Assembly (NCBI GenBank): GCA_016720465.1
Contig: JADKKO010000004.1
Span: forward strand, 1,569,394 to 1,633,393
Length of the DNA: 64,000 nucleotides
Origin: Holophagaceae bacterium
Lineage (GTDB): Bacteria; Acidobacteriota; Holophagae; Holophagales; Holophagaceae
Reading direction: 5' to 3'
Shown here: positions 2,040-60,636 of the stretch, piece by piece
Position numbering within the stretch: the first letter of the stretch is position 1
How the letters are laid out: each line of letters starts with the position of its first letter
Program-made: the position numbers and the translations under genes
Notes under the pieces: model-generated
What the model was told of the DNA's origin: nothing
The model's database searches: none
Seen by the model: the letters and a program-made list of their open reading frames with translations, nothing else

Positions 2040-2420
2040 TTACCGCCTCCCGAGTGCTTCCCACCGCTCGGGCGGGTGGAAACGGCAGCGCCATCCGGCC
2101 CAACTGACCCGTTGGAAGGAAATGGCTCCGGGCCAGGGCACCCGGTCGAGGAAGCGGCTCAGCGCCATTTGCAGGCGCAGGCGCTGTTCATGGGTCAAGG
2201 CCATGTCACCACCCACCCAGGCGCCGGGTTTCCGGGCTTTCACCTCCAGCAGCCGGAGCTCATCCCCCCGGCCCACGAGCAGATCCAGTTCGAAACGCCC
2301 GGATTTCAGCTCCCAGGCCACCAGATCCCATCCGCGCAGCCAGAGCAGCCAGAGCGTCAGCCGCTCGCAACGGCGCCCCCAAGTGCGGGCGGTCCTGCCT
2401 TTTTCGGTCACTGAACCCAT
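2040..2420 (-). CDS. yraN: YraN-family (UPF0102) endonuclease-like protein
   Basis: The internal Met is residue 115 of ORF 2040-2762. WGRRCERLTLWLLWLRGWDLVAWELKSGRFELDLLVGRGDELRLLEVKARK matches the YraN core (E-x-D-hhh ... hhh-E-V-K-x-R). The upstream part of the ORF looks non-coding. Confidence 0.8.
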   Translation of the reverse strand: MGSVTEKGRTARTWGRRCERLTLWLLWLRGWDLVAWELKSGRFELDLLVGRGDELRLLEVKARKPGAWVGGDMALTHEQRLRLQMALSRFLDRVPWPGAISFQRVSWAGWRCRFHPPERWEALGRR

Positions 2421-2670
2421 GGCTCGCCTTGAAGGATGTGGGGATTGGATGAGCCAACCATAGCGCACTTCAGGGCCGGTTTTTTGGTGCCGTTCGCCTG
2501 GATCCACAAGGAAATCGCGGGCTGTGATGCATGGCACAAGAATCCGCCGATTCGACGCGGACCGCCCATTCCAACTATCCTTCGAAGAGCGGTTATAGCC
2601 ATTTTGAAGTCCGTTCACTACCCTGGATGGAAAATCGACGACAACAATCCAGAAACTTCTAGGTGAAAAG

Positions 2671-3915
2671 ATGGACCCACTGCCCTTGGTCGCCTGCGAT
2701 ATTCCGGTTCCCGCCAAGAGCGGGCGGCAGGCGAACCTGTTCGACAAGTGCCTGCAATTCACCCGCGCCGACGAATTGAAGGCCCTGGGCAGCTATCCCT
2801 ACCACCGGGTCATCGAGAACGGGCAGAACACCGAAGTCCAGGTCAACGGCCGGAAAATGTTGATGCTCGGCTCCAATTCCTACCTGGAGCTGACCACCCA
2901 CCCGCGGATCAAGGCCAGATCGATGGAGGCCATCCAGCAGTACGGCAGCGGCTGCGCGGGGTCGCGCTTCCTGAACGGCACCCTGCCCATCCACCTGGAA
3001 CTGGAACGGCGGCTCGCGGATCTCGTGGGCAAGGAAGCCGCATTGGTCTACCCGACGGGCTTCCAGACCAACACGGGGGTCATCTCCACCCTGGTCCAGA
3101 GCGGCGAATACATCATCTCCGACAAGCTCAACCATGCCTGCATCGTGGATGGCTGCGTGCTTTCCCCCGGAAAGATGGTCAGGTACAGCCACAACGATAT
3201 GGTGGACTTGGAAGACAAGCTCTCCAAGCTTCCGAGGGATGCCGGAAAGCTCATCGTCACGGACGGCGTCTTCTCTATGGAGGGGGACATCTGCAACCTG
3301 CCGGAAATCGTGCGGTTGGCGAAGAAATACGGGGCCCAGGTGATGGTGGATGACGCCCATGGCCTGGGCGTCCTGGGACCGGGCGGGGCAGGCACGGCGG
3401 CCCATTTCGAGCTCACGGACGGAGTGGACCTGATCATGGGGACCTTTTCCAAGTCCCTCGCGGCCATCGGAGGCTTCATCGCCAGCAGCGAGCGGGTCAT
3501 CAACTACCTGATGCACACCTCCCGCCCCTTCATTTTTTCGGCTTCGGCGGCTCCCGCCAGCGTCGCGGCGGTGCTCGCGGCCCTGGATGTCATGCAGGAA
3601 GAACCCGACCGGTTGGAACGGCTGTGGCGGAACACGGCCTTCATGAAACAGGGACTGGACGACCTCGGTTTCGACACCGGCGATTCCGCAACGCCGATCA
3701 TTCCCGTTCTCATGGGCGACTTCGACCGCTGCTTCCAGGTCTGGCAGTTCATGCAGGCAGAGGGAATCTTCGTCAACCCCATCGTCCCTCCCGGGGTTCC
3801 GCCCAACCGCTGCATGATCCGGGTCTCGGTCACGGCCGGCCACTCCCTGGAACAATTGACCTGGGCGCTGGAGAAGTTCTCGGAAGCGGGCCGCCGCTTT
3901 GGCCTGACCCAGTAG
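2671..3915 (+). CDS. alpha-oxoamine synthase family PLP enzyme, serine palmitoyltransferase-like
   Basis: 414 aa. Contains GSNSYLEL, SDKLNHACIVDG, MVDDAHGLGVLG and the PLP-lysine motif GTFSKSLAAIGG. The N-terminal extension and operon context (acyltransferase, SDR, PAP2) favour Spt over BioF/Kbl. Confidence 0.8.
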   Translation: MDPLPLVACDIPVPAKSGRQANLFDKCLQFTRADELKALGSYPYHRVIENGQNTEVQVNGRKMLMLGSNSYLELTTHPRIKARSMEAIQQYGSGCAGSRFLNGTLPIHLELERRLADLVGKEAALVYPTGFQTNTGVISTLVQSGEYIISDKLNHACIVDGCVLSPGKMVRYSHNDMVDLEDKLSKLPRDAGKLIVTDGVFSMEGDICNLPEIVRLAKKYGAQVMVDDAHGLGVLGPGGAGTAAHFELTDGVDLIMGTFSKSLAAIGGFIASSERVINYLMHTSRPFIFSASAAPASVAAVLAALDVMQEEPDRLERLWRNTAFMKQGLDDLGFDTGDSATPIIPVLMGDFDRCFQVWQFMQAEGIFVNPIVPPGVPPNRCMIRVSVTAGHSLEQLTWALEKFSEAGRRFGLTQ

Positions 3916-3921
3916 CCGGGC

Positions 3922-5052
3922 ATGGAAAATAGTCTGAGCATCCATCCGGTCACCGGGGCTTCGGATGTGGAAGCATTTATCCGTTTTCCCTTCGGTCTAT
4001 ACCGAGACTACCCGCACTGGGTTCCGCCACTGCTCCTGGAGCGGCGCGAATTCCTGGACCCGGCCAAGAATCCGGTGTTCGAGTATGCCAAGATCCAGCT
4101 TTTCATGGCTTTCCGTGGATCCGAGGTGGCGGGGACCATCGCCGCGATCTGCAACAACCGCTACGGCGAATTCCATCCAGAGGACCGGAATGTCGGATTT
4201 TTCGGTCTTTTTGAATCCATCCAGGACCAGGAAGTCGCCCAGGCGCTGCTCCAGGCCGCGGCGGATTGGCTCCGGAAGGAAGGGAAGACGGTCCTGAGGG
4301 GGCCCGTGAATTTCACGACCAATGACATCGTGGGCCTCCTGGTGGATGGCTTCGAGGACGACCCGGCGATCCTCATGCCTTACAACCCTGCCTATTACGG
4401 CAGCCTCATGGAAGGCGCGGGATTAACCAAGGTCAAAGACCTGTTTGCCTTCACCCTGGCGGAGCGGGACTACAAAGGCCAGCTGGACGGAGTGGCCGCC
4501 AGGCTGGAGAAACGCGGGCATGTGAAGATCCGCCCCGTGGAGCTGGGGCGCTGGACCGAGGAACTGGAATTCGTCCGCAGCTGCTACAACGTGGCCTGGG
4601 CGAAGAACTGGGGTTTCGTTCCGTGGACCGACCGGGAATTGGCTTTCATCGCCAAGGAATTGAAACCCCTCATCGATCCGCGCCTCGCCTTCGTCGCCGA
4701 GGTGGATGGAAAGTCCGCCGGATTCTGCATTTCCGTCCCGGACGCCAACCAGGCCATCAAACTGGCTCGGGGCCGCCTGCTGCCCTTCGGGCTCCTCAAG
4801 CTCCTCTGGAAGCTGAAAGTGAGCAAATGCACTCGGCTGCGCACCATCGCCATGGGCGTGCTGCCGGAGCATCGGAGGCGGGGCATCGATGCGATCCTGG
4901 TGCACCACCTCGTCCGCCAATCCGTGGCCTACGGCTGCCCCGTGTCGGAGATGGGCTGGATCCTGGAGGACAATGAGCCGATGCTCAGCGCCCTGCGCCA
5001 GATCGGCGCGCAGAAAACGAAGACCTACCGCGTCTACGATCGCGCACTATAA
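3922..5052 (+). CDS. GNAT-superfamily N-acyltransferase-like protein (candidate bacterial ceramide synthase)
   Basis: 376 aa, starting 6 nt after the AOS stop. The C-terminal lobe has a GNAT-like acyl-CoA segment (IAMGVLPEHRRRGIDAILVHHLV). The subfamily call is an inference from context. Confidence 0.65.
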   Translation: MENSLSIHPVTGASDVEAFIRFPFGLYRDYPHWVPPLLLERREFLDPAKNPVFEYAKIQLFMAFRGSEVAGTIAAICNNRYGEFHPEDRNVGFFGLFESIQDQEVAQALLQAAADWLRKEGKTVLRGPVNFTTNDIVGLLVDGFEDDPAILMPYNPAYYGSLMEGAGLTKVKDLFAFTLAERDYKGQLDGVAARLEKRGHVKIRPVELGRWTEELEFVRSCYNVAWAKNWGFVPWTDRELAFIAKELKPLIDPRLAFVAEVDGKSAGFCISVPDANQAIKLARGRLLPFGLLKLLWKLKVSKCTRLRTIAMGVLPEHRRRGIDAILVHHLVRQSVAYGCPVSEMGWILEDNEPMLSALRQIGAQKTKTYRVYDRAL

Positions 5053-5055
5053 CCC

Positions 5056-6033
5056 ATGCTCGCGCTCGTCACCGGAGGCCAGGGATTCATCGGATCGCAC
5101 CTCTGCGAGAGGCTGGTCCAGGCAGGCCACCGGGTCCGCGTGCTCGCCCGCCCATCCAGCGATCTCACCCACCTGCAAGGGCTTCCGGTGGAGGTGGTCC
5201 GTGGCGATCTGGCCGGTGAAGAGCCCCTCGCCCCGGCCGTCGAGGGCGTGGACTGGGTCTTCCATCTCGCCGGCGCGCTCAAGGGATTCCGCCAGGAGGA
5301 TCTGCTCCGAGTGAACCGGGGCGGGACGGAGCGTCTACTCGATGCCTGCCAGCTCCATGCGCCCGGCCTCTCCCGCTTTGTCCTGGTGTCCAGCCTGGCG
5401 GCCGCAGGGCCTAGCCCGGGAGGATTGGCCGCTGCGGCCGAGGAGGCCAGTCCCCGGCCTTTGACCTGGTACGGCCAAAGCAAGCTGGAGGCGGAAACGG
5501 TGGTCCAAACTTCCGGCCTTCCCTTCACCATCCTCCGGCCCCCGATCGTCTTCGGGCCCCGGGACCGGGATGTCCTCAGCTATTTCCAGATCGCCCAGAG
5601 GGGTCTGCTCCCGGTGCCGGGCCGCCGGGACCGGTACTATTCCCTGGTGTTCGCGCCGGACCTGGCTGGAGGGATTCTGCGCGCTGCCGAATCACCAGCG
5701 GCCGCCTCGGAGATCTTCAACCTCACGGGCGCCGAAGTGGTGGCCTGGTCGGAGCTTGGCCATAGGATTTCCACCGCGCTCGGTGTCCGGGGCCGGGTCC
5801 TCCGCCTTCCGGAATTCGCCATCCAAGCTTCCGGGAGGATGGCGGATCTCGCGGCGCGCCTGCGGGGGGCTCCCCAGATCTTCAGCTCCCAGAAGGTGAT
5901 CGAGATGCTCGCCCCGGCCTGGGTCGCGGATCCCGGGAAGGCGCAGCGGATGCTCGGATGGAGCGCGCCGACCCCGCTCGACGAAGGCCTGGCCCTGACC
6001 GTGCGTTGGTACCGCTCCCATGGCTGGCTCTGA
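5056..6033 (+). CDS. extended SDR, NAD-dependent epimerase/dehydratase family (candidate ceramide/3-keto reductase)
   Basis: N-terminal Rossmann motif VTGGQGFIGSHL and catalytic YGQSK. 325 aa, starting 3 nt after the upstream stop. Confidence 0.85.
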   Translation: MLALVTGGQGFIGSHLCERLVQAGHRVRVLARPSSDLTHLQGLPVEVVRGDLAGEEPLAPAVEGVDWVFHLAGALKGFRQEDLLRVNRGGTERLLDACQLHAPGLSRFVLVSSLAAAGPSPGGLAAAAEEASPRPLTWYGQSKLEAETVVQTSGLPFTILRPPIVFGPRDRDVLSYFQIAQRGLLPVPGRRDRYYSLVFAPDLAGGILRAAESPAAASEIFNLTGAEVVAWSELGHRISTALGVRGRVLRLPEFAIQASGRMADLAARLRGAPQIFSSQKVIEMLAPAWVADPGKAQRMLGWSAPTPLDEGLALTVRWYRSHGWL

Positions 6034-30444: not shown

Positions 30445-32202
30445 ATGCCCCTGGACCCCGAAAAAATTGGCCGCTACGAGGTCCAATGCGTGTTGGGACG
30501 CGGAGCCATGGGCGTCGTGTACCTGGCTTTGGATCCGCTGCTGAAACGGTCCGTGGCGATCAAGACCATGCGGGACAACGGCGAGGATGTCTCGAACACC
30601 ATGGAGCGGTTCAAGCGGGAAGCGGAGATCAGCGCGAAGCTGAACCATCCGAACATCATCACCGTCTATGACGTGGGCGTGGACAAGGAGATGGGGCCTT
30701 TCCTGGCCATGGAATACATCCAGGGCGCGAGCCTGGCCCACCTGATCAAGGAAAACCTGCCCATGGACGTGGGGCTGCGGCTACTGCTGCAGGGCATGGC
30801 GGCCCTGCAGGCGGCGGAGCAGGGCGGCATCATCCACAGGGACATCAAGCCCGAGAACATGCTGGTGAGCCTGGAAGGCCGGTTCAAGCTGATGGATTTC
30901 GGCATCGCCCGGGGCGACCAGTCGAGGCTGACGGCGGCCGGGATGGTCTTCGGAACACCGTCCTATACAGCTCCAGAACTGCTCGTGGGCGGCGATCCAT
31001 CCCCTGCCACGGACCGCTACGCTTTCGCGGTGACCGCCTTCGAGGTCTTCACGGGGGCCTTGCCCTACCAGGGCACCAGCGTGGGCACAACGCTCTATCG
31101 GATCGTCCACGAAGCCCCGAAAATGCCCGCGACGCTGCATCCGAAACTGCAGGAGGTCTTCCTCCGGGCGCTGGCCAAGGATCCGAACCAGCGCTACCGC
31201 GATCTGGCCAGCTTCATGTGGGCCCTGATCAGCGCGGCGCCCATCGCCAGCGACCAGAAAGCAAAACTGCTGGACAACATTGAAAGCAACCGGCCGAACA
31301 GCGGCACCTTCGATTTTTCAGTGAACACCCAAGGAGGCCCGCCCTCCTCGCCTGGCCTCAGGGCGGCCCCCCCCTCGAAATCCCAGGAGCTCATTTCCAC
31401 CAAGCTGACGGAATCCGGCCCGGTTGAATCCTTCAAGTACGAGCCCCTCCCTGAGTCCGGGGTGCAGTCCTCGGGGGACTTCGCCGACCAGGTGGAAGAC
31501 CAGGAGGGCCCGGAAGACCTTGGGGAGCCGCTGCCGGAACCCGAGATTCCCACCGCGGCGGAAATCCTCGCCCAGATGGGCGGCCCGCCCCCGGCCCCCG
31601 GCAGCGAGAGCCCCACGATGCCCGCGGTGGACGCCCTGGCCGCAGGGCCGGTCCAGAAGCCCGCAGCCGCGGCGCCGCGGAAAGGCGGAAAAGGGCTGCT
31701 GGTGGCCTTTCTCGCGATCCTGGTGCTGGGTGGAATCGGCGTCGGCGGCTACTTCCTGAAGACTGCCAAGAAGCCGGCCCGGAGGGTGGACATCCTCAGC
31801 GAACCGCCGGGCGCCACGGTCTACTCGGAAGGGAAAAGCCTCGGTGAAACGCCCCTCAGCCAAGTGGAGCTGAAGGAAGGCGCTTCAGAATTGAAGCTGG
31901 AACTGGCCGGGTTCGAGCCCACAACCTATCGGATCAAAGCAGGCGAGGCTGCGGTAACGATCAAGCTGGAACTGCCGCCCTACACTGTTTCCGTCGTGAC
32001 GGATCCCGAGGGTGCCGAGGTGTTTCTCAACGGAAAATCCATGGGGAAGACCCCCATCCAGAGTCTCGGCATCCCATCCGAGGGCGCGCGGAAAATCCGC
32101 ATCACCCACGATGGCTGCGTGCCGTCGGAATTCGAAGTGGATCCAACCTTCCCCTTCCCGGAAACCATCCGGCTCACGCCGCTTCCCAAGAACCGCCGCT
32201 GA
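30445..32202 (+). CDS. Ser/Thr protein kinase with TM segment and two C-terminal PEGA domains
   Basis: GRGAMGVVY, AIK, HRDIKPEN, DFGIA and GTPSYTAPE kinase motifs. Then a TM helix (LLVAFLAILVLGGIGVGGYF) and the PEGA motifs SEPPGATVY and TDPEGAEVF. Confidence 0.9.
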   Translation: MPLDPEKIGRYEVQCVLGRGAMGVVYLALDPLLKRSVAIKTMRDNGEDVSNTMERFKREAEISAKLNHPNIITVYDVGVDKEMGPFLAMEYIQGASLAHLIKENLPMDVGLRLLLQGMAALQAAEQGGIIHRDIKPENMLVSLEGRFKLMDFGIARGDQSRLTAAGMVFGTPSYTAPELLVGGDPSPATDRYAFAVTAFEVFTGALPYQGTSVGTTLYRIVHEAPKMPATLHPKLQEVFLRALAKDPNQRYRDLASFMWALISAAPIASDQKAKLLDNIESNRPNSGTFDFSVNTQGGPPSSPGLRAAPPSKSQELISTKLTESGPVESFKYEPLPESGVQSSGDFADQVEDQEGPEDLGEPLPEPEIPTAAEILAQMGGPPPAPGSESPTMPAVDALAAGPVQKPAAAAPRKGGKGLLVAFLAILVLGGIGVGGYFLKTAKKPARRVDILSEPPGATVYSEGKSLGETPLSQVELKEGASELKLELAGFEPTTYRIKAGEAAVTIKLELPPYTVSVVTDPEGAEVFLNGKSMGKTPIQSLGIPSEGARKIRITHDGCVPSEFEVDPTFPFPETIRLTPLPKNRR

Positions 32203-44084: not shown

Positions 44085-44657
44085 CTACCTGCCGCCGGCG
44101 CGGGCGCGCCAGACCCGGCCCACGATGAAGGCGAGCAGCCCGATGCCCATGGCCCAATACACCAGGGGGGTGAAGCTGCTGGTGGCGGCTTCCACTTTTT
44201 TCTTTTCCTCGGCCTTACGGATGTTCTCTTCGATGGAGAGCTTCTGCCGGATGTCGCGGGCATCCGCGACAGCTTTCTTCTGGGACTCCCGCGTCTTCTC
44301 AAGGTCCTTCACCGTGGGGTCCTGGCCTTCGGGCGCGTTGTCCTGGGTGTCCTGCAGGATGAAAGCCGAGTGGTTCACGGCCTGGAGGCGCGGGCGCCGA
44401 TGGCGGTTGCGGGAGGGTCGACCGGAAGAGGCCGGTTGGAAGCTGCCCTCTTCGGGGACCTGCTCGTGATCGCCGGCGCTGTAGTCCAAGGATTCAGCAA
44501 GATCCTGGATATCCTGGCGCATGCCTTGCATTTCGCGGTGTTGCCGGTTGAGCAGCCCGCCATGGAGCCACAGCAGGCCCACCTGCGCGGCGAGCACCGC
44601 CACCAGGGCCGATTGAATCCAGACAGGCTGCCGGGGGTGTGGCGACTCGTTCATCAT
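44085..44657 (-). CDS. hypothetical bitopic membrane protein with charged coiled-coil region
   Basis: TM helices at both ends (WIQSALVAVLAAQVGLLWL; LVYWAMGIGLLAFIVG) flank a K/E-rich middle region. 4-nt overlap with the upstream phosphatase gene. Confidence 0.55.
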   Translation of the reverse strand: MMNESPHPRQPVWIQSALVAVLAAQVGLLWLHGGLLNRQHREMQGMRQDIQDLAESLDYSAGDHEQVPEEGSFQPASSGRPSRNRHRRPRLQAVNHSAFILQDTQDNAPEGQDPTVKDLEKTRESQKKAVADARDIRQKLSIEENIRKAEEKKKVEAATSSFTPLVYWAMGIGLLAFIVGRVWRARAGGR

Positions 44658-47311
44658 GCATCCCTTCCCAGAATCAATAGGGTACGGTCATCCCGGTTCT
44701 GAGTCTCGAATTTCGCGACGTCCTGGAACACCGCTTCGCAGGCGGCCCTGAGGCTTCCGACCCCCCAGAGCCGCTGCAGTTGCATGCGGAACCGGTCCAG
44801 CCCGTATTGCTCGCCCTTGTGGTCCATGGCTTCCGTCAAACCGTCGCTGTAGAGCACCAGCCACTCCTTGGGCTGCAGCAGGCCTTCCTGGATCTGCCAG
44901 TCGCCTGGACCTGCGGGGCGGAGGCCCAGGCCCCGGCCGTGGGGATTCAATTCCGTGGTTTCGTGCGGCTGGGTCCCCTGGACGAGCAACGCCGGAGGAT
45001 GGCCGGCCCGGGCGAGCCGGTAGTGCCCATCCTCGTCCCACTCCAACAAGCAGAGGGTCAGGAAATCGCGCTGGCTCATCAAAGTGCGCAAGGTGTGGTC
45101 GAGGGAGGGCAGGATCTCCTCGAGGCTTTGGTCTTCCCGTTCCGTGGCGAACTCCAGAAGCGCGATGGACTGGCTCATGTACAGCGCACCAGCAAGTCCC
45201 TTGCCGCTCACATCGCCGACGGCCGCGAGCCAGGAGCCTTTTCCATCGGCGGAACGCCGGTGTTTCACCCAGAGCAGGTCGCCTCCGGTTTCCAGGGCGG
45301 GGTCCAGGCGGAGGGCCAGATGGAAGCCCGGGGTTTCCGGCGGTGTGGTGGTGATCATGCCTTTCTGGATGTGACGGGCCGAAGCCAGTTCCTGCTCCAT
45401 GCGGCCCTGGTCCAGCAGCCTCTGGTGCAGCACCGCCGTATCGAGCACGATGCCGGCCTGGATGGCCACTTCGCGCAGGAGTTCCCGGTCCTCGCGACCG
45501 TAATTCAGTTCGGAATATTTGCCTCCCAGCAGCAGAGCCGTGTGGGGCTTCTCGCCCACCAGGATCAGCACCAGCACCTGGGCTTCCAGGGCATCGATGT
45601 GGGCGCGGAGGGAAGGATCCTGCTCCCGGATCCAATCGGCCTCGTCGCTGCCCAGGCCCAACACCAGCTCCCGGTTTTCCACTGCGTGCCGGACCAGGGA
45701 AGCCGGGATTTCGAAGGTCCTCGCGGGGTAGGAGGCACCGTCTTTTTCAGCGGCTGGAAGCTGGAGGGAGCGGCTGCCGAAAGGCAGCATCAGCATGGTC
45801 TGGGGACGGAAGGCATCCCTCAGGGTGGCCTGCAACCCCGCCAGCAGCGCCTCCTCGGAAAAGCGTTTCTTGGTTTCGCGAAGCTGGCCCAGGATGATTT
45901 CCCGGGTGGTGGAGAGGTCCCTGCGGAAACCTTTCCGCACGGCCTTCAACATGCGCCGCAGGAGCCACCCGACGGGCAGGGCCGAGAGTCCGAGCAAGGC
46001 GCCGATCCAGGCGGGCGGAACGGCCGTCATGCCCTGTGCGAAAAGCCAGGCCAGGCCGCCCAGATAGCACAACAGGACCGTGCCGAGCACCAGGAAATAG
46101 GAAAGCCAGCGCAGGATCGCGCGCCGCACATCCAAAAAGCCATGCCGCACGATGGCGTAGGCGAAGGCCAGGGGCAGCAGGGGCAGGGGCGTGAAGAAGA
46201 CCCAGGCTTCGCGGCGGAAGAGCAGGCTGTTCTTGAAGACGAAACCCAGCACCACCAGCGCCACGAAATCCAGCATCACCGCAGAAGTGAGGATGAGGGC
46301 CGGCAGCAAGGCGCGGCGCCGCGAGGCCGGAAGATGCCAGGCCCCGCGCCAAAAGCAGATCGCGCCGGCGATCGCCGCGGCGAAGATCAGGCTCGTCACC
46401 AGCAGCTGGAACTTGGGGCCGAACAGGGCGGTGATGAACCCTCCCACCGCCTCGAATTGCCGGGGATCCACATGGGTTTTGAAATATTCCCTGAAGGCCT
46501 GCAGCAGGCCGAGCAGGAGGTTGAAAAACCCCACTAGGCCGAAGACCAGGTAGAGCCCCTGGAGGAACCGCCGGTTCTTCCGCAGCGGGAAGGGGTGCGG
46601 GAACCGCAGGAAGAAATGGAACCACATGGGAGGCAGCAGCCCCACGGCGAGGCTTCCGAACAGCACCCTCACCCCGTTGAGCCAGGGCGGAAGCGTGCCC
46701 AGGAATGGCCGCACCACCAGGGGGACCAGCAGGGCCAGGACGCCCATGTAGAAGAAATGGCGGGCGACTTTGCGCTGGGCCGAGGACACCACCACCAGCA
46801 GGCCCAAGCCCCAGGCCACCAGGGCCGACACCACCACGAGCAGGCCGGCGATGCTGAACGGCTTCACCAGCCGGACCGGCTGCTGCAGGGTGCGGCCTTC
46901 GCGCTCCAGGGTGTAGACCAGGATGCGGCCCTCGCCTTCCTCGTTGATCCGGTTCTGGGCGTCGTTCAGGGTCTGGGGCGTCACCTTGCGGCCGCTGATG
47001 GCCTTGAGCACATCGCCTTCCAGCATGCCTGCTTCCTCGGCCACGCCATTGGGCAGGATCTCCCGGATGACCACCCTGTTCCCCTCCACCACCCAGGAGC
47101 ACTGGTCATCGGAATAGGAGTAGACCCATTGGAACAGGGCGAAGGATCCCAGGCAGAGCAGCAGGCCCAGTAGACTGGTGAAGATCAGCCGGAACTTGAT
47201 GCGCTGCAGGGAAGGGGACACTGGATGCCTGAGGAAAAGCCCTGGTGGATTCTGGTGGGTGGGATGCGGAGGCTGGGAGGGGCCCTTGCCGAAGAGCTTG
47301 CCCAGGATCAT
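44654..47311 (-). CDS. polytopic membrane PDZ-domain SpoIIE/PP2C-family serine phosphatase
   Basis: PDZ (VVIREILPNGVAEEAGMLEGDVLKAISG), about 10 TM helices, then a PP2C/SpoIIE core (GGDLLWV...AVGDVSGKGLAGALYMS...LYSDGLTE). The start is uncertain (47335, 47311 or a GTG at 47221). Confidence 0.85.
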   Translation of the reverse strand: MILGKLFGKGPSQPPHPTHQNPPGLFLRHPVSPSLQRIKFRLIFTSLLGLLLCLGSFALFQWVYSYSDDQCSWVVEGNRVVIREILPNGVAEEAGMLEGDVLKAISGRKVTPQTLNDAQNRINEEGEGRILVYTLEREGRTLQQPVRLVKPFSIAGLLVVVSALVAWGLGLLVVVSSAQRKVARHFFYMGVLALLVPLVVRPFLGTLPPWLNGVRVLFGSLAVGLLPPMWFHFFLRFPHPFPLRKNRRFLQGLYLVFGLVGFFNLLLGLLQAFREYFKTHVDPRQFEAVGGFITALFGPKFQLLVTSLIFAAAIAGAICFWRGAWHLPASRRRALLPALILTSAVMLDFVALVVLGFVFKNSLLFRREAWVFFTPLPLLPLAFAYAIVRHGFLDVRRAILRWLSYFLVLGTVLLCYLGGLAWLFAQGMTAVPPAWIGALLGLSALPVGWLLRRMLKAVRKGFRRDLSTTREIILGQLRETKKRFSEEALLAGLQATLRDAFRPQTMLMLPFGSRSLQLPAAEKDGASYPARTFEIPASLVRHAVENRELVLGLGSDEADWIREQDPSLRAHIDALEAQVLVLILVGEKPHTALLLGGKYSELNYGREDRELLREVAIQAGIVLDTAVLHQRLLDQGRMEQELASARHIQKGMITTTPPETPGFHLALRLDPALETGGDLLWVKHRRSADGKGSWLAAVGDVSGKGLAGALYMSQSIALLEFATEREDQSLEEILPSLDHTLRTLMSQRDFLTLCLLEWDEDGHYRLARAGHPPALLVQGTQPHETTELNPHGRGLGLRPAGPGDWQIQEGLLQPKEWLVLYSDGLTEAMDHKGEQYGLDRFRMQLQRLWGVGSLRAACEAVFQDVAKFETQNRDDRTLLILGRDA

Positions 47312-47938
47312 GCGCTGGTGTTGACCGGTTCTCAAGACGCTGATGGGGAATGGTCAACGGAGCTTGCCCGCCGCACTCAGGTCCGGACCTTCCGGTGGAA
47401 TGCCATGGATCCGGAGCTTGGCCCCCTGATGATGGCAGACCTGGATGGACTTGAAAGCGCCGGAGTCCGGTTGGCCGGGGCGGTGATCGCGGCTGGGACG
47501 TTCCCTGAACAACCATTCGGGGCGTGGACCGCGGAGGAACTGGAAATTATCTGGCGCGTGAATTTGAGCTTTCCCATGATGTGCGCCCAGGCGCTTGCGC
47601 CAAGGCTCGCCGACCGGAGCTGCATCCAATTCCTGGTGGATACCTGCATCCACCGTCCTTTCCTGAAAAGGCTGCCCTACAGCGCCTCGAAGTCCGGCCT
47701 CGCTTCACTGGTGCCTGGCCTGGCGCAGGTGCTCGCCCCCCGCCTCCGGGTGGTCGGCCACGCCATCGGAACGGTGCTTCCCGACCCTTCCATCGACCCC
47801 GCCTGGCTGGCCTCCCAAAGCCTGCTCGGGCGCAACGGGGGCCCGGCGGATGTGGCCCGCAGCCTGAGGTTCGCAGCAGCAAGCCCCTACCTGACCGGGG
47901 AGATCCTCACGCTCGATGGCGGGCGACGCTGGCGTTGA
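47225..47938 (+). CDS. short-chain dehydrogenase/reductase (FolM/pteridine-reductase-like)
   Basis: ILVGGMRRLGGALA glycine-rich motif, catalytic YSASKSG, C-terminal ITGEILTLDGG. Confidence 0.75.
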   Translation: MPEEKPWWILVGGMRRLGGALAEELAQDHALVLTGSQDADGEWSTELARRTQVRTFRWNAMDPELGPLMMADLDGLESAGVRLAGAVIAAGTFPEQPFGAWTAEELEIIWRVNLSFPMMCAQALAPRLADRSCIQFLVDTCIHRPFLKRLPYSASKSGLASLVPGLAQVLAPRLRVVGHAIGTVLPDPSIDPAWLASQSLLGRNGGPADVARSLRFAAASPYLTGEILTLDGGRRWR

Positions 47939-55212: not shown

Positions 55213-55776
55213 ATGGAACCCATGGATCCCGGTCTCGTGGAGGAATTGCGCAAGCATGTGGCCATGGCCCGTGTGATCGGCTTCTCCCTCTGCTTCCTGG
55301 CGCCGGCCATCTACCTGCTGCTGCTGGTCCAAATGGCGTTCCATGGGAATCCCCGGCCGCTGGTGGCCGGGTTCCATTCGGTGCCCTGGGGCGATCTTCG
55401 GATCATCGTCCTGTCCATGGCCGGCCTGGCCCTCCTGGCTGCGGGCCCCTACCTGGTCCATCGGTTCTGGGCCCGGGCGAACGCGGCTGAGACAGCTGAA
55501 GGAGTCTTCGCGAATCTCCGCGCCGGCCATATCCTCCATTGCGCAATGCTCGAATCGGTCGCGATTTTCGGCCTGGTATTGGGCTTCACGGTGGGCACCG
55601 GGGCGGGTCCCGTCTGCCTGGTCATGTCGCTGGTTCCGCCGGTGGGCTACCTGTTGTTCGTGCCGGGGGCGCGGCCGCGGCTGCGCCTGCTCTCGCTCCG
55701 GGCCGCGGGGCTTCCCGGAGGGCGCCTCGCTGGCCCGACGGACCTCCATCAGGGAGATGGCCGTGGCGCGCCTTGA
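55213..55776 (+). CDS. hypothetical 4-TM membrane protein (paralog A)
   Basis: Four hydrophobic helices. The segment ILHCAMLESVAIFGLVLGF resembles ILLYSALFEVSCFFGLAYWA in the next gene. Confidence 0.55.
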   Translation: MEPMDPGLVEELRKHVAMARVIGFSLCFLAPAIYLLLLVQMAFHGNPRPLVAGFHSVPWGDLRIIVLSMAGLALLAAGPYLVHRFWARANAAETAEGVFANLRAGHILHCAMLESVAIFGLVLGFTVGTGAGPVCLVMSLVPPVGYLLFVPGARPRLRLLSLRAAGLPGGRLAGPTDLHQGDGRGAP

Positions 55777-56233
55777 AGATGCGGACCTAGACGCCCTGCA
55801 TCGCGCTTATCGCTGGGCCTACCTGGCCGGATTGACGCTTTGTGTTTTCTGGCCCTTGATGCTGCAACTGGCGTTCACCGAATTCATCGCGCCAGGGCAG
55901 AACCCGCCTGATGGAGTCGTCAAGCAATTGGGCTACACCTTCACCGGCCTGGTGCTGCTCTGCGCGGCCTTCGTGACCTGGCGGTCAGGCAAGGTCCGGG
56001 CTGGCTTCTGCGCCTTAGCCGCCGCAGCCAGGCCCAGGGCGATGGCCCGGGAAATCCTGCTCTATTCGGCGCTCTTCGAGGTGAGCTGCTTTTTCGGTTT
56101 GGCCTATTGGGCCCTGGCGGGGCATGAAGGCGTGCGCTTCGCCCGCAGCTTCATCGTGCTCACCAGCATCATGTTCTTCTGCTTCGTGCCGCGTTTCGAC
56201 GCATGGCGCCGCGCCGCCGAAGGCGAGGCCTGA
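55757..56233 (+). CDS. hypothetical 4-TM membrane protein (paralog B)
   Basis: The start is Met139 of ORF 55343-56233, overlapping paralog A by 20 nt. It has the same predicted topology. Confidence 0.55.
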   Translation: MAVARLEDADLDALHRAYRWAYLAGLTLCVFWPLMLQLAFTEFIAPGQNPPDGVVKQLGYTFTGLVLLCAAFVTWRSGKVRAGFCALAAAARPRAMAREILLYSALFEVSCFFGLAYWALAGHEGVRFARSFIVLTSIMFFCFVPRFDAWRRAAEGEA

Positions 56234-56319
56234 ACGATCCGCTTATTCGGGCGGCATGGCCAAGTTGTTTTGTCGCGTGGGCCGACTCAAGGTTATGCTT
56301 GGTGACTCTTACTGCTCCC

Positions 56320-58812
56320 ATGGCCCAAAAACCCCCAAAAGACCAACGCGCCAAGCCCGTCGAGGCTGACCGCACTGTGCGCCTGCCCCGGAAAGGCCTG
56401 GGACTCGAGAAGGATGAACCCACCCAGGCGCTTCAAATGGGCGCGCCCGCGGCCGATTCCACGCTGCGGTTGAAGCGGGACGAGATGTCGTTGGAAGAGC
56501 CCACTGTGGCGCTGAAGGCCGGTGTGCCCGCCGCCGACTCGACCCTGCGGTTGAAGCGGGATGAGATGTCGCTGGAAGAGCCCACCGTGGCGCTGAAGGC
56601 CGGTGCGCCCGCCGCGGACTCGACCCTGCGGTTGAAACGGGATGAGATGTCGCTGGAAGAGCCCACCGTGGCGCTGAAGGCCGGCGTGCCCGCCGCGGAC
56701 TCGACCCTGCGGCTGAACCGGGACGAGATGTCCCTGGAAGAGCCCACCCAGGCGCTGGAGCGGCCTGCGCTGCGGACCGCGATGGAAGTGATCGACGAGG
56801 CGACCAAGGTCGAAACGCGCCAGGCGAAGCCTTCGGTGATGCTGCCGGATGCCACGGATATCCCGTCCTGGGAAGAATCCACCCAGTTCTTCACGCCACC
56901 TGCCGGTGGCCACGCGGACTCGACGCTCCACCTGCCTCGTCCGCTGGAGCCCCCCCCGGCCGCGGTGGATCCCAGCGATTCCATGGATGAGACCTTCCCG
57001 AACGCTCCCGCGGCGCCCAAGGGCCAATCATCGCCACCCGCGCCCATGGAAGCGGCCAACCTGATGCAGGTAGTGGAAGGCCCGGACCTGGAAGAAGACA
57101 CCCTGGTCCTGCCCGACCTGCACGAGCTGGATGAACTCCAGAACGCCATGAAATCCACCACGATGATGCCCGTGATGGAAGCGCCCGCGGCTCCGGAACC
57201 GCCCGAGCCCATGGAAGCCACCACCATCCTGCATGTGGAGCCAGCCGCCGAACCCGCGCCAATGGCGAAGACCATGGTGATGCCCGTGATGGAAGCGCCC
57301 CCAGCGCCGGAGCAACCCGAGCCCATGGAAGCCACCACCATCCTGCATGTGGAGCCAGCCGCCGAACCCGCGCCAATGGCGAAGACCATGGTGATGCCCG
57401 TGATGGAAGCGCCCTCGGCGCCGGAACAACCCGAGCCCATGGAAGCCACCACCATCCTGCATGTGGAGCCAGCCGCCGAACCCGCGCCCGCGCCCATGGC
57501 GAAGACCATGGTGATGCCCGTGATGGAAGTGCCGCCAGCGCCGGAACCGCCCGAGCCCATGGAAGCCACCACCATCCTGCACGCGGAGCCAGCCGCCGAA
57601 CCCGCGCCCGCGCCCATGGCGAAGACCATGGTGATGCCCGTGATGGAAGCGCCCCCGGCGCCGGAACAACCCGAGCCCATGGAAGCCACCACCATCCTGC
57701 ACGCGGAGCCTGCCGCTGAACCCGCGCCTGCGCCCAGGGCGAAGACCATGGTGATGCCGATGGTAGAACCGCCATCGGCTCAAGAAAAACCCGGGCCCAT
57801 GGAAGCAACGACCATCATGCCCGTTTCCGCCGAGGATCCATCGGCCTACCTGACCCGTCAGGGCCAGTCCCCTTGGCCCCCATCTTCCAAACCGGTGGAG
57901 CAATCCCCGGCTTCCACCCAATTGATGTCCGAGTCTCTGCTTTCCATGGCCAAGGAGGCCACCAGCCGCGACCTTGATTCGGCCCTGGCCCCGGTGCCCC
58001 CGGAGGTCACGGCGATGGAAGATGATTCGCCGCTGGCCAGAGCCTCGGAACCGCCCGCTGCGCACCCCCCGGCGCGCCCCTTCGGCCACGCGCAGGACCG
58101 GACCGTTGACACCTCCTCGGGCATGGCGATGACCCCCTCCACGGTGCTCATGCCCGTTCAGCCCCCGCTGGAGCCCACGGCGCCCATCCAGCGCCCGGCA
58201 CCCGCGCCCACGCCCATGCCATCAATAGCAGCCGAAAAGCCAAGGCCGCAGGCATCGCAGCCGATGCCATCCGGGCCCGCGAAACCCAGGCCTGGCGAAC
58301 CTGTGGCGGCCGTCGTTCCGCCGTCGGTTCCGGGCTATCCCGACCGCCATGTGCCGGCCCCGCCCCCTCCCCCCAGGCCTCAGCCCAAACCCGCGGCCAG
58401 TCCTGTCAAGGCGCTCAGCCCGGCTCCCCTTCCGATGGCGGCGCAGGCCAAGGCCGCCGGAAGCTCCTCCAAGCTCTGGATTCCGATCGCCATGGGTTTT
58501 TTACTTTTGGTCATCGGCGGAATCTATTTCGCTTTTTTCAGGACTTCCCTGAAAACAAACCTGCCGCTGGTGGCCTTGCCCAACCAGGGCAGCGAACCCA
58601 GCCTGCCGGTCCCGGCGGATATGCAAGGCACCCTCGCCCAGGCCAAAGGCGGCGACAGCAAGGCCATGCACATGCTCGGGGTGAGCTTCTACTACGGCCT
58701 CAACGTGCCCCAGAACAAGGCCGAGGGCCTGCGTTGGATGCGCAAATCCGCCGAGGCGGGCAATGAAAAGGCCAAGAGCGATCTCCGCCAGATGGAGTCC
58801 GAGGGCCGCTGA
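56320..58812 (+). CDS. 830-aa repeat-rich, Pro/Met-rich, single-TM protein with C-terminal Sel1-like repeat
   Basis: The start is Met40 of ORF 56203-58812. The + frame has GC-rich third codon positions. A TM helix (LWIPIAMGFLLLVIGGIYFAFF) and a recognisable SLR motif (AMHMLGVSFYYGLNVPQNKAEGLRWMRKSAEAGNEKA) identify the coding frame among several long overlapping ORFs. Confidence 0.8.
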   Translation: MAQKPPKDQRAKPVEADRTVRLPRKGLGLEKDEPTQALQMGAPAADSTLRLKRDEMSLEEPTVALKAGVPAADSTLRLKRDEMSLEEPTVALKAGAPAADSTLRLKRDEMSLEEPTVALKAGVPAADSTLRLNRDEMSLEEPTQALERPALRTAMEVIDEATKVETRQAKPSVMLPDATDIPSWEESTQFFTPPAGGHADSTLHLPRPLEPPPAAVDPSDSMDETFPNAPAAPKGQSSPPAPMEAANLMQVVEGPDLEEDTLVLPDLHELDELQNAMKSTTMMPVMEAPAAPEPPEPMEATTILHVEPAAEPAPMAKTMVMPVMEAPPAPEQPEPMEATTILHVEPAAEPAPMAKTMVMPVMEAPSAPEQPEPMEATTILHVEPAAEPAPAPMAKTMVMPVMEVPPAPEPPEPMEATTILHAEPAAEPAPAPMAKTMVMPVMEAPPAPEQPEPMEATTILHAEPAAEPAPAPRAKTMVMPMVEPPSAQEKPGPMEATTIMPVSAEDPSAYLTRQGQSPWPPSSKPVEQSPASTQLMSESLLSMAKEATSRDLDSALAPVPPEVTAMEDDSPLARASEPPAAHPPARPFGHAQDRTVDTSSGMAMTPSTVLMPVQPPLEPTAPIQRPAPAPTPMPSIAAEKPRPQASQPMPSGPAKPRPGEPVAAVVPPSVPGYPDRHVPAPPPPPRPQPKPAASPVKALSPAPLPMAAQAKAAGSSSKLWIPIAMGFLLLVIGGIYFAFFRTSLKTNLPLVALPNQGSEPSLPVPADMQGTLAQAKGGDSKAMHMLGVSFYYGLNVPQNKAEGLRWMRKSAEAGNEKAKSDLRQMESEGR
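56416..56760 (+). repeat. 81-bp (27-aa) tandem repeat, about 4.25 copies
   Basis: Unit EEPTVALKAGVPAADSTLRLKRDEMSL, with unit starts at 56416, 56497, 56578, 56659 and a partial unit at 56740. Confidence 0.9.
57175..57825 (+). repeat. 114/120-bp (38/40-aa) tandem repeat, about 5.5 copies
   Basis: Unit MEAPPAPEQPEPMEATTILHVEPAAEPAP(AP)MAKTMVMPV, with unit starts at 57175, 57289, 57403, 57523, 57643 and a degenerate unit at 57763. Confidence 0.9.
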
Positions 58813-58821
58813 TCAGGTCGG

Positions 58822-60636
58822 CTAGGCCTCGGGCGCGGAGTCGCGCCAGGCCAGCACCTTCGCCACCGCCGCAGGGCCGATGGCCGCGCGGAGATCAGCC
58901 TCCGGGACGGTTCGCACAGCCCCAACGCTTCCGAAGGATTGAAGCAGTTTTTTGGCTGTTGCGGGGCCGATCCCCGGGATTTGCGTGAGCTCTGTCTGGA
59001 GGGTGCGCTTGGCCCTGAGATTCCGGTGATAGGTGACTGCGAAACGATGGGCCTCATCCCGGATGCGTTGCAGCAGTTGTAGCACCGGGGAGGATTTCGG
59101 GATGCGGAAGGGTTCGCTCCGGCCCGGACGGAAGACCAGTTCCTCCTTCTTCGCGAGGCTGGCCAGTTCGAGATGGTCGAGCCCGAGATCCTTCAACGCT
59201 GCTTCGGCCGCATGCAACTGGCCCAGGCCGCCGTCGATGAGCACGAGGTTCGGGAATTCCTGGCCCTCTTCCTTCAAGCGCTTGTAGCGGCGGGTGACCG
59301 CCTCGTGCATGTTGGCGAAATCATCGTTCTGCTCGTTGCTCATCTTGAAGCGCCGGTAGCGCGCCTTGTCCGGGACACCGTCGCTGAAGACCACGCAGGA
59401 GGCCACCACTTCGCGGCCCTGGCCATGGCTGATGTCGAAGCACTCCATGCGGCGCGGGACGTGGGAGATGCCAAGGAAGGCCTGCAAGCCTTCTAGCACG
59501 GCTTCGTTCAGCCGGGCCGGTTCGAACTTCCGTTCCAGGGCCATTCGCGCGTTTTCCTGGGCCATGGACAATAAATCGACTTTTTCACCCTTTCTCGGGA
59601 TATGGATGGCGGGTTTCGTCCCCCTCAGGGTGCCCAGCCAGTCCCGCAGGAGGTCCGCATGTTCGGGCTCCACTTCCACCAGGATCCGGGCCGGGACGGG
59701 TTCCACGGCATAGACCCGTTGCAGCACTTCAGCCAGCACCGCGCCGTCGAAGGTCTCGATGTCGTCCAGGATGTATTCATGGCGGTCCACCATGCGCCCT
59801 TCGCGCATGACCAGCCGATGCACGCAGGCCCGGCCATCCAGCACCGCGGATCCGTACAGGTCCGTATCCTCCTGGTCGGAGCTGGCGGCCTTCTGCCGCG
59901 TGAACCAGGCGTCCAGCTGCTGCAGCGCGTCGCGGTGGTGGGCCGCCAACTCGAAGGCGGATACCTCCGCGGCCTTCCACATGGCCGCTTCCAGGCGGGA
60001 CTTCAGCTCATCCCGCTTGCCTTCCAGGAAGAGTTTCGCTTCCTTCGCCTGCTCCGCATAGGCTTCCTGCGACACTGCGGCGATGCACGGGGCTGTGCAG
60101 CGGTGCAGCTGGTACTTCAGGCAGGCGCGCCCGCGCTTGCCGTCGATGTCGATGTCGCAGTCGCGGATCTGGAAGAACCGGTAGACCAGTTCCGCTGTCC
60201 GGTAGGCGGTGCTCGCCGGGAAGAAAGGCCCGAAATAATAGGCCTTGTCCTTGAGGACCTTCCGGGTCACATAGACCTTGGGGAAGGCCTCCCGGGTGAG
60301 CTTCACGTAGGGATAGCTCTTGTCGTCGCGGAGCAGGATGTTGAAGGGCGGCCGGTGCTCCTTGATCAGGTTGTTCTCCAGGACCAGGGCTTCCAACTCT
60401 GTTTCGCAGACGATGAATTCCAGGTCCCAGATGCGCGCCACCAGCCGACGGGTCTTGGCGTCCTTTGGGGAGGCGGTGAAATAGGACTTCACGCGGTTCC
60501 GGAGCACCTTGGCCTTGCCGATGTAGAGCAGGTTTCCTTCCGCATCGCGATACAGGTAGCAGCCGGGCTGCGTCGGCAAGTCCGGCAGTTTCCGTTGTAG
60601 GAAAGGGCTTTTGTCGAGGTTCGTTCGGGGCGCCAC
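58822..60636 (-). CDS. uvrC: excinuclease ABC subunit C
   Basis: GIY-YIG N-terminus (GCYLYRDAEGNLLYIGKAKVLRNRV), UVR domain, and the endonuclease V/HhH2 C-terminus (IPGIGPATAKKLL). Confidence 0.95.
   Translation of the reverse strand: MAPRTNLDKSPFLQRKLPDLPTQPGCYLYRDAEGNLLYIGKAKVLRNRVKSYFTASPKDAKTRRLVARIWDLEFIVCETELEALVLENNLIKEHRPPFNILLRDDKSYPYVKLTREAFPKVYVTRKVLKDKAYYFGPFFPASTAYRTAELVYRFFQIRDCDIDIDGKRGRACLKYQLHRCTAPCIAAVSQEAYAEQAKEAKLFLEGKRDELKSRLEAAMWKAAEVSAFELAAHHRDALQQLDAWFTRQKAASSDQEDTDLYGSAVLDGRACVHRLVMREGRMVDRHEYILDDIETFDGAVLAEVLQRVYAVEPVPARILVEVEPEHADLLRDWLGTLRGTKPAIHIPRKGEKVDLLSMAQENARMALERKFEPARLNEAVLEGLQAFLGISHVPRRMECFDISHGQGREVVASCVVFSDGVPDKARYRRFKMSNEQNDDFANMHEAVTRRYKRLKEEGQEFPNLVLIDGGLGQLHAAEAALKDLGLDHLELASLAKKEELVFRPGRSEPFRIPKSSPVLQLLQRIRDEAHRFAVTYHRNLRAKRTLQTELTQIPGIGPATAKKLLQSFGSVGAVRTVPEADLRAAIGPAAVAKVLAWRDSAPEA

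Follow-up and report, generated by a model that had tools for sequence, protein, structure and literature searches.

A gene on the plus strand of the 64,000-nucleotide stretch of Holophagaceae DNA analysed here (the window) encodes a protein of 830 amino acids (aa), in which a long repetitive tail is followed by a single transmembrane (TM) helix and a single Sel1 repeat. This protein is read here as a probable bitopic disordered scaffold from an uncharacterised, family-restricted lineage. Its unusual feature, which has good support, is the repeated, separate amplification of a short motif centred on a Thr residue. A first-pass annotation of the window had described repeats, a Pro-rich region, one TM helix and one Sel1 repeat, and all of these parts were recovered by Tandem Repeats Finder (TRF), composition and hydropathy analysis and Pfam. 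It had also stated that no characterised homologue is known, and the present analysis agrees. The named homologues are annotated only as Sel1/TPR repeat proteins or as hypothetical proteins. The coordinates of the features are collected in Table 1.

The Thr-centred motif

The tails of the family feature a shared motif, [DE]-x-[ASK]-T-[VQL]-x-[LM]-[PRK], followed by a hydrophobic residue. The motif profile consists of acidic residues at positions -2 to -5, Ala, Ser or Lys at -1, the Thr, Gln, Leu or Val at +1 and Leu or Met at +3; further downstream it has Pro (or Arg/Lys) at +4, Leu or Val at +5 and often Gly at +6. In 37 short orthologues, the motif is present in islands along the 105-residue tails (PDA-T-VRLPAG, DPxS-T-QxLxL, T-L-K-L-P and D-Q-T-Q-K-L-x-L-P), in which T19 is invariant, R21, L22 and G25 are conserved and T34 is at least 90% conserved. 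The window protein opens with a matching pair at the corresponding positions, ADR-T19-VRLPRKG and DEP-T35-QALQMG, and repeat A is made of tandem copies of such a motif pair (AADS-T-LRLKR and EEP-T-VALKAG). Each B unit consists of two related half-units, PMEATTILHVEP and PMAKTMVMPVME, with one Thr motif apiece (PMEA-T-TILHVEP and PMAK-T-MVMPVME). Both repeat families are thus multiplied forms of one Thr motif. The window protein holds 27 motif sites versus 4 in a 212-aa orthologue, and most sampled genera have a similar density, about 4 motifs per 100 residues.

The hydrophobic residue at position +3 is specific to Thr. Leu, Ile, Val or Met occupies Thr+3 in 47% of the distinct Thr windows from nine other genera, versus 20% in composition-preserving shuffles, and 0 of 1000 shuffles reached the observed value; the count uses distinct windows, with the repeats left out. 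The corresponding value is 51% in the short orthologues alone, 49% in the window protein and 57% in an orthologue from another genus (G015). No excess of hydrophobic residues at +3 was found for Ser (16-28%, not significant), Ala, Glu or Pro. Among 120 short homologues, a hydrophobic residue at +3 follows 52% of Thr residues versus 11% of Ser residues. V-R-L is preceded by Thr in 55 of 58 distinct contexts and by Ser in none, and [VLQ][RK]L is preceded by Thr in 251 of 281 contexts and by Ser in 2. The strict form of the motif has 13 matches in the window protein versus at most two in any of the 7,370 other open reading frames (ORFs) of the genome, and no second protein with such a motif array emerged from a genome-wide scan. 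A few isolated matches elsewhere, in folded enzymes and in DnaN, look like chance.

Evolution of the repeat arrays

The first-pass annotation had proposed a 27-aa family A with about 4.25 copies and a 38-40-aa family B with about 5.5 copies, and TRF confirmed both. Family A was found with an 81-nt period and 3.9 copies (56445-56757, 92% matches), and family B with a 120-nt period and 5.6 copies (57157-57820, 90% matches) and with sub-periods of 51-57 nt inside; these unit numbers are as assembled. The flanking copies ADRTVRLPR (residue 16) and ADSTLHLPR (residue 199), also listed in that annotation, are present. Whole-length matches with 42-65% identity were found in 16 other proteins from independent assemblies of the genus, of which the named ones are from Holophagaceae or Acidobacteriota. 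A comparison of repeat copy number between relatives revealed the same arrays in these 16 assemblies, with the same order of parts and with copy numbers that vary from 1 to 5 A units and from 1 to 11 B half-units.

The ratio of nonsynonymous to synonymous substitution rates (dN/dS), determined against four genus-level orthologues, is 0.07-0.15 in repeat A, 0.26-0.33 in repeat B and 0.09-0.18 in the TM and Sel1 part. By region the ratio spans 0.07-0.37, and these ratios are rough because dS is near saturation. The values indicate that the 830-aa protein is under purifying selection. The repeat units had been described as nearly identical at the DNA level, which was taken to imply a recent expansion, and this is partly right. 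It describes the first four B units, which are 94-97% identical in DNA; the differences among them affect the Pro-rich linkers and spare the motif cores, and these four units are either younger or homogenised. It does not describe the A units (79-96%) or the fifth B unit (82-87%). A units that encode identical protein differ by 9-10 bases, nearly all of them synonymous, and this synonymous-only divergence argues for selection on the peptide sequence and is unlike a very recent duplication. The closest DNA relative of every A unit is a unit of the same genome, with a mean identity of 0.79 within genomes versus 0.70 between genomes, and because the A units are most similar within their own genome the arrays evolve in concert.

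The Thr motif has also been multiplied elsewhere in the family. The G015 orthologue, a protein of 843-1001 aa, features its own 41-44-aa unit in about eight copies, with two Thr motifs per unit (HPDA-T-LIVRREELE ... PA-T-TLMPLA; HPDATLIVRREELE...PATTLMPLA). A Geothrix-type group of metagenomic proteins of 358-364 aa (P0200, P0235, P0251, P0253 and P0260) carries about 9-10 motif copies with a strict 18-residue period, in which the unit is P-(D/E)-(A/P)-T-V-R-L-x-A-G-x-P. Additionally, some proteins have 3-4 copies of further units, and small arrays of Thr motifs are also present in P0232, P0256 and P0185. Since several lineages multiplied the motif separately, multiplication has been favoured repeatedly, and this is strong evidence that the motif and the number of its copies are the functional feature of the tail.

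Protein architecture and predicted topology

The 830-aa protein has a pI of 4.7 and is composed of 17.5% Pro, 15% Ala, 9% Glu and 6.7% Met, with no Cys. Hydropathy analysis identified one hydrophobic segment in the whole protein, at about residues 719-742. Pfam and NCBIfam searches of the 830-aa protein found no domain besides Sel1, which Pfam (PF08238) places at residues 780-815 as a single stretch with 34.6 bits against a cut-off of 30.7; a MerG match in NCBIfam is far below threshold and reflects just the Sel1 repeat. A PDB sequence search with the 717-aa tail found nothing meaningful. The Pro-rich linker contains the conserved islands PSAYLTRQGQ, STQLMSESLL, DRTVDTS..TPSTVLMP and PSVPGYPDR.

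AlphaFold2 (AF2) modelling of the window protein with a 16-sequence alignment gave a mean predicted local distance difference test (pLDDT) score of 41.6, with 682 of the 830 residues below 50. Both repeat arrays are without secondary structure in the model and the tail has four short helices, which include residues 154-162, 184-189 and 267-281. The long tail is predicted to be intrinsically disordered. The AF2 model of a short orthologue (37 sequences) has a likewise structureless tail and a Sel1 module with pLDDT scores of 91-97. The Sel1 helices of the window protein are modelled at residues 766-776, 780-785, 800-812 and 816-826, and the Sel1 model of the short orthologue superposes in Foldseek on solved Sel1-like repeat (SLR) structures with about 1 A over 58 residues. 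Sel1 proteins in the PDB match with E values down to 1.8e-30, a score that adds up several repeats within the target protein.

The predicted topology places the tail in the cytoplasm and the Sel1 module in the periplasm. No N-terminal signal sequence was found in the window protein, and its only TM helix comes after the repeats. Summed across ten genera, Lys and Arg number 23 and Asp and Glu number 8 in the 15 residues that precede the TM helix, and both counts are 12 in the 15 residues that follow it. The cytoplasmic placement follows from the positive-inside rule and from the expectation that a tail of 720 residues would not be exportable without a signal.

Several known motifs and proteins were considered and rejected. 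The TonB box has a similar acidic-Thr-hydrophobic pattern, yet it is periplasmic, and the Q-L-x-L spacing of the beta-clamp-binding motif does not fit. A lipobox is excluded by the lack of Cys, and a TonB, ZipA or RodZ-like protein differs in domain order or topology.

Family distribution and the upstream membrane proteins

In a sample of 40 relatives, a match to the family was found in 21 of 24 Holophagaceae genomes and in 0 of 16 genomes from two sister families of the class, and the family was found only in Holophagaceae. The match in other genera is limited to the Pro-rich, TM and Sel1 end. At least six other genera share the gene order scpA, small 4-TM gene or genes, Sel1-protein gene and convergent uvrC, and because of this recurrence the matching proteins are taken to be orthologues. 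A search with the 212-aa orthologue as the query identified 193 homologues, with a median length of 211 aa among the 120 listed, and the named ones are from Geothrix or Holophagaceae. The 830-aa gene is an expanded member of a family whose typical members have about 210 aa. Profile-profile comparison of long and short members aligned the TM and Sel1 part with a probability of 99.8% and did not align the tails, and the case for homologous long and short tails is built on the identity and position of the motifs and not on an alignment score. When the C-terminal 131 residues were compared with the full library in HMMER, the 48,123 matches were mostly to multi-repeat Sel1 proteins and did not help in tracing the family beyond Holophagaceae.

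Two small genes for membrane proteins with four TM helices (4-TM proteins) are located directly upstream, and neither protein matched any Pfam family. The second 4-TM protein has a taxonomic spread identical to that of the Sel1 protein (21/24 Holophagaceae, 0/16 in the sister families), and in at least nine other genomes from seven genera its match is found immediately upstream of that to the Sel1 protein. This co-occurrence suggests that the 4-TM genes and the Sel1-protein gene probably form an operon and that their products are probably functional partners. One genome (G008) features two copies of the 4-TM and Sel1-protein pair, on contigs C4 and C54, with 4-TM proteins that are 82-84% identical; this points either to a genuine duplication or to a bin that mixes two strains (contamination about 3%). 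The position of the 4-TM genes after scpA raised the possibility that they replace ScpB. This was ruled out, since scpB is located at G000:C4:1467943-1468419, about 157 kb from scpA.

A proposed docking scaffold and how its motifs may be read

The function proposed for the window protein is that of a motif-array docking scaffold at the membrane, read mainly through phospho-Thr or through a comparably specific reader, and the chances of this proposal are judged to be about even. In such a scaffold, the 720-residue disordered, acidic, Pro/Ala/Glu-rich tail would be located in the cytoplasm and held at the inner membrane by the one TM helix, with the small four-helix Sel1 module in the periplasm. 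The tail would be a multivalent docking platform that concentrates one or a few partners at the inner membrane, and the motif copy number would set the valency. Anchoring, localisation or an input from the envelope would come from the Sel1 module together with the co-inherited 4-TM protein. The Thr of the motif may be phosphorylated by some of the approximately 35 Hanks-type kinases of the genome, and the resulting phospho-Thr-x-x-Leu/Met sites may recruit FHA-domain proteins. This phospho-Thr/FHA version is the foremost specific mechanism, although taken by itself it is offered tentatively, as rather unlikely. The complete proposal is that a membrane-tethered disordered phospho-Thr (pThr) array gathers FHA effectors according to Hanks-kinase activity and is coupled to the Sel1 module and the 4-TM partner, with a valency tuned by separate amplification from 4 to 27-38 sites in at least two genera; stated in this full form it is unlikely. 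If true, the pThr array would be a previously undescribed bacterial signalling device and a counterpart of the eukaryotic multi-pThr platforms.

Among the known readers, the FHA domain suits the motif best. FHA domains have been reported to strictly require pThr over pSer and to bind pTxx[I/L/V] (PMC8786283). The motif of Mycobacterium tuberculosis kinases, in the work of Prisic 2010 as quoted in PMC6888350, consists of acidic residues followed by T-x-(x/V)-hydrophobic-(P/R)-I. PknA-dependent sites feature acidic residues at -3 to -6, Pro at -1, Leu or Val at +3 and Lys or Arg at +4 (PMC7164672), a pattern that EEP-T-VALK and DS-T-LRLKR fit closely. At the level of sequence, the window protein has what an FHA site calls for, namely Thr and not Ser, a hydrophobic residue at +3, a predicted cytoplasmic and disordered setting, and kinases and FHA proteins in the genome. 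The 3.5-Mb genome has 11 FHA-domain genes beside its approximately 35 Hanks-type kinase genes, and is permissive for phospho-Thr reading. The first-pass annotation had remarked, as pure speculation, that D-S-T-L-R-L would suit a pT-x-x-L FHA-binding site, and this remark fits better than its copper proposal (see below), since the Thr is conserved family-wide, is specific and is followed by a hydrophobic residue at +3. The kinase of the window, which it had named in support, does not carry over. Kinase proximity was dropped as a clue, as it is expected by chance with about 35 kinases in 3.5 Mb.

Two kinase genes are located in the surroundings of the locus, one in the window at about 30475-31197 and one about 3 kb beyond the window end. 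A minus-strand gene at 44657-47335, about 9 kb upstream and without a synteny link, encodes an 893-aa protein in which a PDZ domain close to the N-terminus is combined with a SpoIIE/PP2C phosphatase domain at the C-terminal end. This PDZ-PP2C protein could be a Ser/Thr phosphatase of the same signalling system.

A number of points weigh against a phospho-Thr docking scaffold. No kinase, FHA or phosphatase gene is adjacent to the gene; the kinase of the window is about 25 kb away and the PP2C-type phosphatase about 9 kb away, and these distances are unremarkable in a genome that averages one kinase per 100 kb. The topology, the docking role, the phosphorylation and the identity of the partner are inferred from the sequence. 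The kinase motif comes from Actinobacteria, which are distant from the organism of the window, and in a later M. tuberculosis study (bioRxiv 10.1101/2022.02.17.480717) the motifs were only weak and phosphosites tended not to have hydrophobic residues around them. The window protein taken alone has balanced charges on the two flanks of its TM helix, 2 versus 2, and the topology with the N-terminus inside is a prediction. The docking model explains the Met pattern of MEKTMVMPVME, which is conserved in the genus, only as "flexible hydrophobic side chains". Finally, a Thr with alternating hydrophobic residues is also expected of a motif that forms a beta-strand and acts independently of phosphorylation.

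The last point leads to an alternative in which the motifs are read without phosphorylation. The Thr-hydrophobic-x-hydrophobic-Pro pattern would be a short beta-strand that binds by strand addition, with the Thr kept for structural reasons, and the partner could be, for example, the co-inherited 4-TM protein, the substrate-binding groove of a chaperone or other copies of the protein itself. Hydrophobic residues are enriched at +1, +3 and +5 and Pro or a basic residue occupies +4, as in a one-sided strand; additionally, a conserved gene partner without a known domain lies directly upstream, and no kinase or FHA gene is linked to the locus. However, the near exclusion of Ser at the Thr position (0/58 and 2/281 contexts) speaks against strand addition, the upstream acidic residues are more easily explained by reading of the kinase/FHA type, and AF2 shows no strand pairing or folding back of the motifs. 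Strand addition is a possible explanation, although it falls well short of being probable.

The repeats could also be a neutral low-complexity spacer that arose by replication slippage, or their number could be an assembly artefact, in which case only the TM helix and the Sel1 module would matter. The wide variation in copy number among close relatives fits such a spacer, as do the slippage-prone B units with their high DNA identity, and the copy number in the window comes from the assembly alone. This explanation is nevertheless very unlikely, given that dN/dS is well below 1 in both repeat regions, that identical A units are separated by synonymous-only divergence, and that the motif core is invariant while the linkers vary. 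Moreover, the motif is kept across the family also where it is not repeated, several lineages have multiplied it separately, and the locus lies inside a 1.8-Mb contig of a 4-contig assembly. The gene encodes a real, selected protein and not junk or an artefact.

The Met-rich repeats and copper

The first-pass annotation had likened the Met-rich B repeats to the Cu(I)/Ag(I)-binding motifs of CopA/PcoA/CusF/Ctr1-type proteins. On a copper-binding proposal, for which the Met-rich segments of CueO and SilE are further parallels, the protein would buffer or sense copper. Each B unit had been credited with 6 Met and 1 His; the His count is correct and the Met count is 5. The MxxMxMxxM pattern that had been described has 0 literal occurrences, and the actual spacing is M-x3-M-x-M-x2-M, which occurs 4 times and does contain MxM and MxxM. 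In favour of copper, most Met residues of the MEKTMVMPVME half-unit are retained across the genus, the B region consists of 8.5-14.6% Met in all 17 genus-level proteins, the window protein among them, and there is a precedent in CueO, in which a partly disordered Met-rich domain recruits Cu(I) (PMC11494321).

The window protein has 8 MxM and 5 MxxM motifs in total, but MxxH, HxxM, MxH and HxM are all 0 and the protein has no Cys. Met-rich copper sites of the CopA/PcoA, CusF and Ctr1 kind act in the periplasm or outside the cell, whereas the repeats are predicted to be cytoplasmic. Met is frequent at -3, +1, +3 and +6 in the genus, yet it interchanges there with Leu, Ile, Val and Thr, and only 12 of the 71 distinct motif copies within the genus have His at the His position. 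The first-pass annotation had named homologues without the Met pattern as evidence against copper; within the genus the homologues do have the pattern, and most other genera do not. The tails contain 6.9% Met in this genus versus 1.3-2.7% in eight of nine other genera; the ninth, G021, has 6.1% with an uncertain start. The median Met content is 1.9% in the 120 short homologues, and Leu, Val or Ile stands at the corresponding motif positions in most other genera. No Met pattern is present in repeat A or in the family-wide motif. No copper homeostasis gene is located within about 15 kb, and none belongs to the conserved scpA/uvrC synteny; the neighbours encode ScpA, the two 4-TM proteins, UvrC, a metallo-beta-lactamase-fold protein, SPFH proteins, a radical SAM/LipA protein, an SDR protein, a PP2C phosphatase and others. 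With a predicted cytoplasmic site, a Met-richness confined to this genus, an unconserved His and no copper gene context, the proposal of Cu(I)/Ag(I) binding is unsupported and highly improbable. Met is best seen here as one choice of flexible hydrophobic residue at positions +1, +3 and +6 of the family motif. Met-rich repeats alone are a weak predictor of copper binding once topology and conservation in orthologues are considered.

Gene model and features of the locus

The plus-strand reading frame is open from 56203 to 58812 and the gene upstream ends at 56233. The start codon at 56320 (MAQKPPKDQ...) gives the 830-aa protein and is the likely start, because the N-terminus from this position is conserved in those orthologues that reach that far and because the invariant Thr is residue 19, as in the short members of the family. 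The GC content at third codon positions (GC3) is 0.80 in this frame, similar to that of uvrC and scpA. Several antisense ORFs of 244-438 aa cross the repeat arrays on the minus strand (56293-58089) and are repetitive and rich in Gly, Ser, Ala and Arg; since the GC3 fits the plus-strand frame, they are regarded as shadow ORFs of GC-rich repeats and not as genes. A scan of the locus for promoters and terminators found nothing above chance. The stop codons of the gene (58810-58812) and of the convergent uvrC (58822-58824) are 9 nt apart with no terminator between them, and the transcripts of the two genes probably overlap.

Table 1. Coordinates of the 830-aa protein gene, its parts and associated features (positions in the window unless a contig is named).
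Feature	Coordinates	Strand	Evidence
Coding sequence of the 830-aa bitopic protein	56320..58812, stop codon included	+	ORF and translation, GC3 0.80, 16 genus-level orthologues, dN/dS
Two upstream 4-TM membrane protein genes	55213-55776 and 55757-56233, overlapping	+	Synteny, taxonomic spread
Ancestral N-terminal motif pair, residues 15-40 (ADRTVRLPRKG and DEPTQALQMG)	56362..56439	+	Matches motifs 1 and 2 of 37 short Geothrix-type orthologues
Repeat family A, four 27-aa units with two Thr motifs each (ADSTLRLKR, EEPTVALKA)	56440..56763	+	TRF, unit comparison, dN/dS
Non-repeated conserved tail segment with short predicted helices and Thr motifs ADSTLHLPR (residue 199) and EEDTLVLPD (residue 258)	56764..57156	+	Invariant alignment columns, AF2
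Repeat family B, about 5.5 Met-rich units of 38-40 aa with two Thr motifs each	57157..57820	+	TRF, unit table, motif profile
Pro-rich linker, predicted cytoplasmic, residues 503-715	57826..58464	+	Composition, invariant columns, pLDDT < 50
Single TM helix, about residues 719-742, predicted signal anchor with the N-terminus inside	58474..58545	+	Hydropathy, AF2 helix 720-742, charge bias
Four-helix Sel1 (SLR) module, predicted periplasmic, residues 766-826	58615..58797	+	Pfam PF08238, PDB matches, AF2
G015 orthologue with its own tandem repeat	L017 (G015:C7), ~2189-5191	+	Separate amplification of the Thr motif

Comparison with known systems

SLR proteins (PF08238) include HcpB and HcpC from Helicobacter, LpnE and LceB from Legionella and Sel1 proteins from Oxalobacter. 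Known SLR proteins are soluble, secreted or periplasmic solenoids with 3 to more than 10 repeats. The C-terminal 60 residues of the window protein are a bona fide Sel1 repeat with flanking helices; however, there is a single full repeat with four helices and no solenoid, and the TM helix joins the module to a disordered tail of 720 residues, for which those proteins have no equivalent.

The layout of the protein resembles that of PodJ from Caulobacter, which has a cytoplasmic N-terminal part with a disordered, charged, client-recruiting region, one TM helix and a periplasmic TPR-type domain (PMC8980812). The same bitopic layout, predicted here from sequence, is shared more loosely with HubP and FimV. 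In contrast to PodJ, the tail of the window protein consists of tandem motif repeats, the long self-assembling coiled coils of PodJ are absent and no sequence similarity is detectable. Pfam finds no peptidoglycan-binding or LysM domain in the window protein, which also sets it apart from PodJ, HubP and FimV.

The B units share MxM and MxxM clusters in a flexible segment with the Met-rich Cu(I)/Ag(I) segments of CueO/PcoA/CopA, CusF, SilE/PcoE and Ctr1. They differ from these segments in their predicted cytoplasmic location, in the lack of His-Met pairs and Cys, in the exchangeability of the Met and in a gene context without copper genes.

Regions with multiple pThr sites that are read by FHA domains are known from GarA/OdhI and the Rv1747 linker in bacteria and from the TQXF cluster of MDC1 in eukaryotes. 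The tail of the window protein shares with them, as far as sequence can tell, the preference for Thr over Ser, the hydrophobic residue at +3, the upstream acidic residues, the disorder and the many copies per chain, whereas no FHA or kinase gene is linked to the locus here. We know of no description of a membrane-anchored 27-site array with a periplasmic Sel1 module. Acidobacteriota are rich in Hanks kinases of unknown function, and if the motif is read as phospho-Thr these kinases would gain a defined, abundant substrate and docking platform. In eukaryotes, signalling depends centrally on short linear motifs within disordered regions, but such motifs are poorly charted in bacteria, and with members that range from 4 to about 38 motif copies the family provides an unusually clean natural series for studying motif valency in a bacterium.

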